From: Escherichia coli
Lineage (GTDB): Bacteria; Pseudomonadota; Gammaproteobacteria; Enterobacterales; Enterobacteriaceae
Strand: one strand, 5' to 3'
DNA length: 64,000 nucleotides
Assembly: GCF_044647545.1 (NCBI RefSeq)
Contig: NZ_CP172818.1
How positions within the stretch are numbered: position 1 is the stretch's first letter; every line of letters begins with the position of its first letter. Positions 62,401 through 64,000 of the stretch are shown here, piece after piece. The position numbers were made by a program.

Positions 62401-64000
62401 CAGTTCAGCGTTACGCTCAACTTCGGCTCGTAAGGCCAACAGGTCGTATGCCGCACGGAACTTAGGATGCTCCAGCAGTTTCCATGCGCGTTTTCCCTGA
62501 CGACGGGACATACGCAACTGCAACTGCCAGATATCGCGAGTTAGCGTAGTCAGACGTTTCGGGATCGCCAGTGAACGGCAGGCTTCGTCCAGCACGTCGT
62601 TCATCGCCAGTGCGAAAGCGTCGTGATAGGTCAGGCCGCTCTCCTGAGCAATTTTCTGTGCCGTCTCCAGCAGTGGATACCAGAACATGGCGGCAAACAG
62701 GAACGCCGGGTTCACGCGCATATCGTTATGGATACGCGTATCGGTATTCTTCAGCACCTGTTCAATGATCCGCTCCATCGGGCTGTCGCCATTTTCCGTG
62801 AAGTAGCGGGTAATGGTCGGGAACAGCGGCTGGAACAGATGATATTCACACAGCAGCTTATAAGTTTCGTAACCGTAGCCCGCTTGCAACAGTTTCAGCG
62901 ATTCTTCAAACAGACGTGCCGGTGGGATATCGTTCAGTAAGGTTGCCAGGCGTGGGATCGGCTCGGCGGTTTCCGGGCTGATGCGCATGCCCAATTTGGC
63001 GGCAAAACGAACCGCGCGAAGCATCCGTACCGGATCTTCACGGTAGCGCGTTTCCGGGTTACCAATCAGACGGATAACGCCGTCTTTCAGATCCTTCATG
63101 CCGCCAACGTAATCACGGACGGTAAAATCTGCCACGCTGTAATACAGGCTGTTGATAGTGAAATCGCGGCGCTGGGCGTCTTCTTCGATGGAGCCGAAAA
63201 TGTTGTCGCGCAGCAACATACCGTTTTGCCCGCGTTGGGAGGTCGTGCGGTCGCTGACGTTACCTTCGTGATGTCCACGGAAGGTCGCAACTTCGATAAT
63301 CTCCGGGCCAAACATCACATGAGCCAGACGGAAACGGCGACCCACCAGGCGGCAGTTACGGAACAGTTTGCGCACCTGCTCTGGCGTGGCGTTGGTGGTC
63401 ACGTCAAAATCTTTCGGCTTTTTGCCAAGTAACAGGTCGCGCACGCCGCCGCCAACCAGCCAGGCTTCGTATCCCGCTTTATTGAGCCTGTACATTACCT
63501 TCAGGGCATTTTCACTGATATCTTTGCGGGAAATAGCATGCTGCTCACGCGGGATCACCGTCACCTGTGGACGGGCGACTGCCTGTTCAGCCTCGCTTTC
63601 CTCGCGGCTTAGCACCTTGCGGCAAAAATTAGCGACTCGGGTAAAAATAGTACACCTCGGTAGTGTCAAACATCATTCAGGACAAAAAAATAGCGGCTAA
63701 TCATAGCTCAGCATGACGCATTTGAGAATGTTGAATTTACAATTGCCGACTCAGGCACGGCAGTCAGCGTCCAGTTTTTGACGGCTGACTGAAGGATTTG
63801 CTCGACGCTGAAATCCTGCCAGTGTGTTTCTACCTGCTGACCCAGAAAATGAAGTGCCGCGATTAACACCGGGCGCGGATCGCCTTTCGGCAACGCAGGC
63901 GCATGATTCTGCTTGGAAAGTTTAGCGCCTTGTGCGTTTAGCGCCAGCGGTAAATGAATGTAATCTGGCACCTGCCAGCCAAAAAGCTGGTACAGCGAGA

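Follow-up and report, generated by a model that had tools for sequence, protein, structure and literature searches.

Where does translation of pcnB, the gene of poly(A) polymerase I (PAP I), start? The question is raised by a 64,000-nt stretch of the Escherichia coli contig NZ_CP172818.1 (the window), in which the initial annotation had placed the conserved N-terminus of the enzyme at an ATT codon and had proposed non-canonical AUU initiation that keeps the enzyme level low. Our analysis makes it very probable that pcnB is translated from AUU at 63648–63646 on the minus strand, with the effect of keeping PAP I scarce. The start bears on how cells hold down a toxic RNA-tailing enzyme, and its recognition matters for correct annotation, given the 472-, 454- and 447-aa versions of the protein in public databases. 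The pcnB AUU start is an already published feature and its recognition in the window is a correct rediscovery from which nothing new follows. The functional use of AUU and its limiting effect on expression are taken from the literature; the anatomy, annotation and conservation of the start come from this analysis.

Anatomy and annotation of the pcnB start

The minus strand of 61800–64000 carries, in order, the 3' end of gluQRS, pcnB and folK (Table 1). Direct reading bore out that the conserved poly(A) polymerase N-terminus opens at ATT, which is followed by TTT ACC CGA GTC GCT AAT TTT TGC CGC AAG GTG CTA AGC CGC GAG. Up to ATT, the same frame reads TGA TGT TTG ACA CTA CCG AGG TGT ACT ATT. Since the in-frame TGA closes the frame, pcnB has a single in-frame start of canonical type upstream of ATT, the TTG two codons past TGA and seven codons before ATT, as had been claimed. 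The mechanical pcnB ORF (62251..63669) opens with this TTG. There is no in-frame ATG upstream of ATT; both ATGs of the ATGATG at 63676–63671 are out of the pcnB frame. The 4-nt overlap of pcnB with folK, also described earlier, was found as an ATGA shared by the pcnB stop (62253–62251) and the folK ATG (62254–62252).

Table 1. Features of the pcnB locus on the minus strand of the window
Feature	Position	Strand	Basis or remark
Sigma-70-like promoter (TTCTCA, 17 nt, TATGAT)	63700..63728	-	Consensus scan; overlaps gluQRS end
In-frame TGA closing the pcnB frame 5' of TTG	63673..63675	-	Direct reading
Upstream in-frame TTG, competing start, judged not used	63667..63669	-	No Shine-Dalgarno sequence; TTG here in 26 of the 80 best loci
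Shine-Dalgarno sequence GAGGTG, 4 nt 5' of ATT	63653..63658	-	Invariance; 16S duplex energy
ATT (AUU), very probable translation start codon of pcnB	63646..63648	-	Direct reading; RefSeq start; conservation; NF008634 position 1
Codons 2–9, almost no synonymous variation, part of the translation initiation region	63622..63645	-	Codon entropy
GTG at pcnB codon 12, first in-frame canonical start downstream	63613..63615	-	454-aa form from some gene callers
pcnB CDS, poly(A) polymerase I, 465 codons and stop	62251..63648	-	ORF; RefSeq WP_010723084.1; NF008634; PDB match
ATGA shared by pcnB stop and folK ATG	62251..62254	-	Direct reading; 4-nt overlap

The Shine-Dalgarno (SD) sequence GAGGUG was predicted to form a duplex of -9.8 kcal/mol with the 3' end of 16S rRNA for ATT. 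The 20 nt before TTG gave -2.3 kcal/mol against the same 3' end, and the value before GTG codon 12 was -0.1 kcal/mol; no comparable SD was found at any other candidate start in the pcnB frame within 63560–63720. The SD is therefore strong as computed, though the literature (PMC3561954, PMC9764084) terms the pcnB ribosome-binding site 'poor'.

Two small out-of-frame ORFs, one from the ATGATG at 63676 and one from the GTG inside the SD, were considered for a uORF role and rejected, since neither is conserved. The former (63629–63676, minus strand; 15 codons, ATG ATG TTT GAC ... CGC TAA) runs across the SD and ATT. It lacks an SD for its own start, and conservation of its ATGs does not extend beyond Escherichia. 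In some species the spacer reads GTG TAA.

The RefSeq/PGAP coding sequence starts at this ATT (window position 63648) both in a genome that is identical over 501 nt and in K-12 MG1655, and in both it is a 1398-nt CDS for the same 465-aa protein as in K-12, WP_010723084.1. At the matching E. coli locus, where the gene order is dksA-gluQRS-pcnB-folK (as it also is in Aeromonas), the CDS spans 2653–4050 and 4047–4526 reflect the pcnB/folK overlap. The NCBIfam PcnB equivalog model NF008634 scored 997 bits, above its cut-off of 702, with profile positions 1–468 of 469 covered; its position 1 falls on the ATT residue, number 8 in the translation from TTG. Precomputed domains on a 100%-identical 465-aa protein are PolyA_pol (PF01743), PolyA_pol_RNAbd (PF12627) and PolyA_pol_arg_C (PF12626). 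The match to the E. coli PAP I crystal constructs (PDB 3AQK–3AQN) covers residues 28–442 in ATT numbering, and as the constructs start at residue 28 they are uninformative on the N-terminus. In public databases the Enterobacteriaceae pcnB product is stored with at least four N-termini (472, 465, 454 and 447 aa), and the recurrent 'RC' residues of the extended entries are the translated SD GAGGTG.

Of 5426 complete E. coli genomes, 5424 have a match to the 501 nt around the start (best 100%) and two have none; three of 5425 matches sit on plasmid-labelled records. Over this region the window matches FDAARGOS_497 at 100% identity and most other E. coli at about 98%. A shorter segment of 85 nt is identical in 5398 of 5424 E. 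coli, including a K-12 MG1655 assembly, and the 31-nt core from the SD through codon 5, with ATT, is exact in 5420 of the 5426 complete genomes.

Conservation of the start in Enterobacteriaceae and more distant relatives

The species survey covered a single genome for each species, and its best 80 loci were all from Enterobacteriaceae (86–100% protein identity). The codon aligned to the window ATT is ATT in 80 of 80, and positions -10 to -5 are GAGGTG, spaced by four nucleotides from ATT, again in 80 of 80. Other Ile codons of pcnB vary freely among these species (for codon 32, 42 species have ATC and 34 have ATT), and the conservation of ATT is more than chance.

Between the upstream stop and ATT, 43 of the 80 best loci have no in-frame ATG, GTG or TTG. 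The TTG at -7 is present in only 26, and the in-frame stop stands at a variable distance, modally nine codons from ATT. The 4-nt spacer between the SD and ATT is variable, such that a translated codon -1 would encode T, N, I, A or P, while codons 1–9 are fixed. The leader between the promoter-proximal motif and ATT measures 36 to 72 nt with differences that are not multiples of three, and the AGG within the SD, a rare Arg codon if coding, never becomes CGN among the 80 best loci. The variable spacer, the non-triplet indels, the missing upstream starts and the unchanged AGG together show that conservation changes from the non-coding to the coding type exactly at ATT.

These patterns bear on the alternative that translation starts at the upstream TTG and yields a 472-aa protein, in which ATT would be an ordinary internal Ile codon. 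Its standing as the only upstream in-frame start of canonical type speaks for it, as does the use of the 472-aa form by many database entries; moreover, UUG is named once as the pcnB start in the introduction of PMC3561954, at odds with the AUU statement of that paper. However, the TTG has no SD and is confined to a minority of the best loci, more than half of which offer no upstream canonical start at all. The stretch from TTG to ATT holds an invariant SD and a variable spacer, upstream indels ignore the frame, and both RefSeq and NCBIfam begin PcnB at ATT. We consider a start at TTG extremely unlikely. AUU initiation is supported by the RefSeq start, the NCBIfam model, the SD, the conservation boundary and the literature, in agreement with the initial annotation.

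Codons 1–9 alone are too conserved within Enterobacteriaceae to reveal a coding-type substitution pattern. The first protein search gave only Enterobacteriaceae; distant taxa were found by a representative search and contig look-ups. The arrangement GAGGTG-N4-ATT, in frame, is present in Candidatus Erwinia haradaeae, Thorsellia kenyensis, Aeromonas hydrophila, Tolumonas auensis and Oceanisphaera avium, and the comparative support added here is that it reaches from Enterobacterales to Aeromonadales. Photobacterium ganghwense (GAGGTG-TATT-ATC, about 291–306 of its locus) and GCA_001640375.1 (GAGGTTATT-ATC, about 330–345) have ATC at the homologous position and ATT one codon earlier; a Colwellia-like metagenome contig has AAGG-CCAGT-ATT ATT. 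In Photobacterium ganghwense an in-frame ATG that overlaps the SD is also present.

The annotated pcnB starts are inconsistent among these genomes. Erwinia and Oceanisphaera are annotated from ATT, Aeromonas from a TTG at -13, Tolumonas from a GTG at -18, Photobacterium from an ATG at -4 and Thorsellia from a GTG at +13. In one Aeromonas hydrophila record (CP043324.1, 1501–2998 of the extracted locus L082) pcnB is called as two ORFs of 316 aa and 150 aa, which suggests a frameshift or sequencing error, because other A. hydrophila entries hold a 499-aa protein.

The distant sequences also bear on a second alternative, by which GTG codon 12 (giving 454 aa) or a later internal codon would serve as the start and the conservation of codons 1–11 would be that of leader RNA. 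This GTG is invariant in the best loci (80 of 80), gene callers often yield a 454- or 447-aa PcnB, and codons 2–9 are conserved at the nucleotide level. A shorter isoform from an internal promoter and AUG was speculated upon in PMC2939334, where two western-blot bands are noted; PcnB may have a minor additional isoform besides the AUU product. Against a start at codon 12, the GTG lacks an SD, and codons 10, 11 and 13 vary synonymously within Enterobacteriaceae. In the distant taxa, synonymous changes occur at codons 5, 6 and 9 (GTC/GTT/ATC/ATT, GCT/GCA/GCC and TGC/TGT), and these changes preserve the peptide I-F-x-x-[VI]-A-x-F-C-[RK]-K-[VL]-L. Codons 2–11 change synonymously or conservatively in Aeromonas, Tolumonas, Oceanisphaera, Photobacterium and Thorsellia with the peptide retained. 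The residues right after ATT are thus under protein-level selection and hence translated, which argues against GTG codon 12; we regard initiation there or further downstream as very unlikely.

The AUU start in published work and its proposed effect

By the title of their paper and by those citing it, Binns and Masters (2002, Mol Microbiol 44:1287) are credited with the pcnB AUU start in K-12, which they reportedly described. The window represents another E. coli strain, and its pcnB shows no difference of substance from that of K-12: the protein (WP_010723084.1) and the 85 nt at the start are identical, and K-12 shares the ATT, the SD and the folK overlap.

Translation of pcnB starts at a non-canonical AUU that lies upstream of the promoter originally put forward by Liu and Parkinson (PMC2939334), and the account given in the same paper attributes to Binns and Masters (2002) the demonstration of control at translation initiation. 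The AUU codon is stated to keep PAP I at about 30–50 molecules per cell (PMC3561954), a paper that also documents the toxicity of excess polyadenylation and, in its summary of Binns and Masters, mentions that AUU starts in many Proteobacteria have phylogenetic support. Only infC and pcnB are listed as E. coli genes with confirmed AUU starts (bioRxiv 10.1101/063800, PMC5499595), and both were set aside for this reason in PMC4245954. The earlier proposal that AUU limits the poly(A) polymerase level is therefore in line with papers that cite Binns and Masters (2002), as far as their summaries of that work go. A 17-residue N-terminal leader of PcnB is reported to be removed post-translationally (PMC9764084), so that sequencing the N-terminus of mature PcnB may fail to distinguish an ATT start from a TTG start. 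A literature search for pcnB together with retapamulin start-site profiling returned nothing usable.

We propose that GAGGUG and its 4-nt spacer would set the 30S subunit with AUU in the P site. As AUU pairs poorly with the anticodon of the initiator tRNA, owing to a third-position mismatch, the complex would be rejected more often, particularly by IF3. Such inefficient initiation would limit each cell to a few tens of PAP I molecules, and the toxicity of excess polyadenylation would be avoided.

The role of IF3 is suggested by analogy with infC, the gene of IF3, which like pcnB has a conserved non-canonical AUU that limits its translation (PMC5499595, bioRxiv 063800); by this analogy we infer that IF3-dependent discrimination may set pcnB expression. 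In some taxa infC has AUC as an alternative (PMC5499595), which is paralleled by the ATC of Photobacterium pcnB. Unlike pcnB, infC is autoregulated, its own product IF3 discriminating against AUU. We know of no feedback loop for pcnB. A rare ATT start also attenuates the expression of Enterococcus faecalis ebpA (PMC4447247) and of IS911; these are unrelated genes and organisms, without sequence relationship to pcnB.

Codons 2–9 and the upstream promoter

The sole addition to the published AUU start is the near-frozen state of the synonymous sites at codons 2–9 across 78 Enterobacteriaceae species. The mean codon entropy is 0.046 there versus a mean of 0.944 over the gene; a value this low was not reached by any of 100000 random sets of eight codons, and the 10-codon window from codon 1 has the lowest entropy of 421 windows. 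The frozen codons include the rare CGA. The constraint loosens in the more distant taxa. This pattern suggests that the constraint acts on the RNA of the initiation region.

We speculate that GAGGUG-N4-AUU with the next 24 nt could form a conserved cis-acting RNA element, or a sequence that makes AUU usable at all, and we regard this as rather unlikely. Candidate trans-acting readers of such an element may be an sRNA with Hfq, a protein, or a sensing of the IF3 level; if the element were real, pcnB translation would be regulated and not merely low. Structural support for an element was not found at the pcnB start: the 94-nt leader and start fold no better than shuffled sequences (z = +1.34), and a small hairpin, GGUG:UACC, is weak (-4.7 kcal/mol, z = -0.5), with invariant stems that allow no covariation signal. 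A scan of 63400–64000 against Rfam (E <= 1) gave no match.

The leader from the sigma-70-like promoter would be about 45 nt. Most of the 80 best loci conserve its motif, GAGCTATGATTAGCCGCTATTTTTTT, which can also be recognised in Aeromonas, and the promoter is probably the pB of Binns and Masters that is discussed in PMC2939334. The motif GAGCTATGATTAGCCGCTATTTTTTTGTCC at 63680–63709 (minus strand), which overlaps the gluQRS stop, combines a TATGAT resembling a -10 element with a GC-rich segment and a run of T. It is present in most of the 80 best loci, absent from eight of them, including Salmonella, and occurs twice in tandem in Aeromonas (about 1385–1500 of the locus).

A second region of low synonymous variation lies at pcnB codons 36–46 (63511–63543, minus strand), where codons 41–43 do not vary; this region might correspond to the sigma-S promoter pS1, placed 3' of ATT by PMC2939334.
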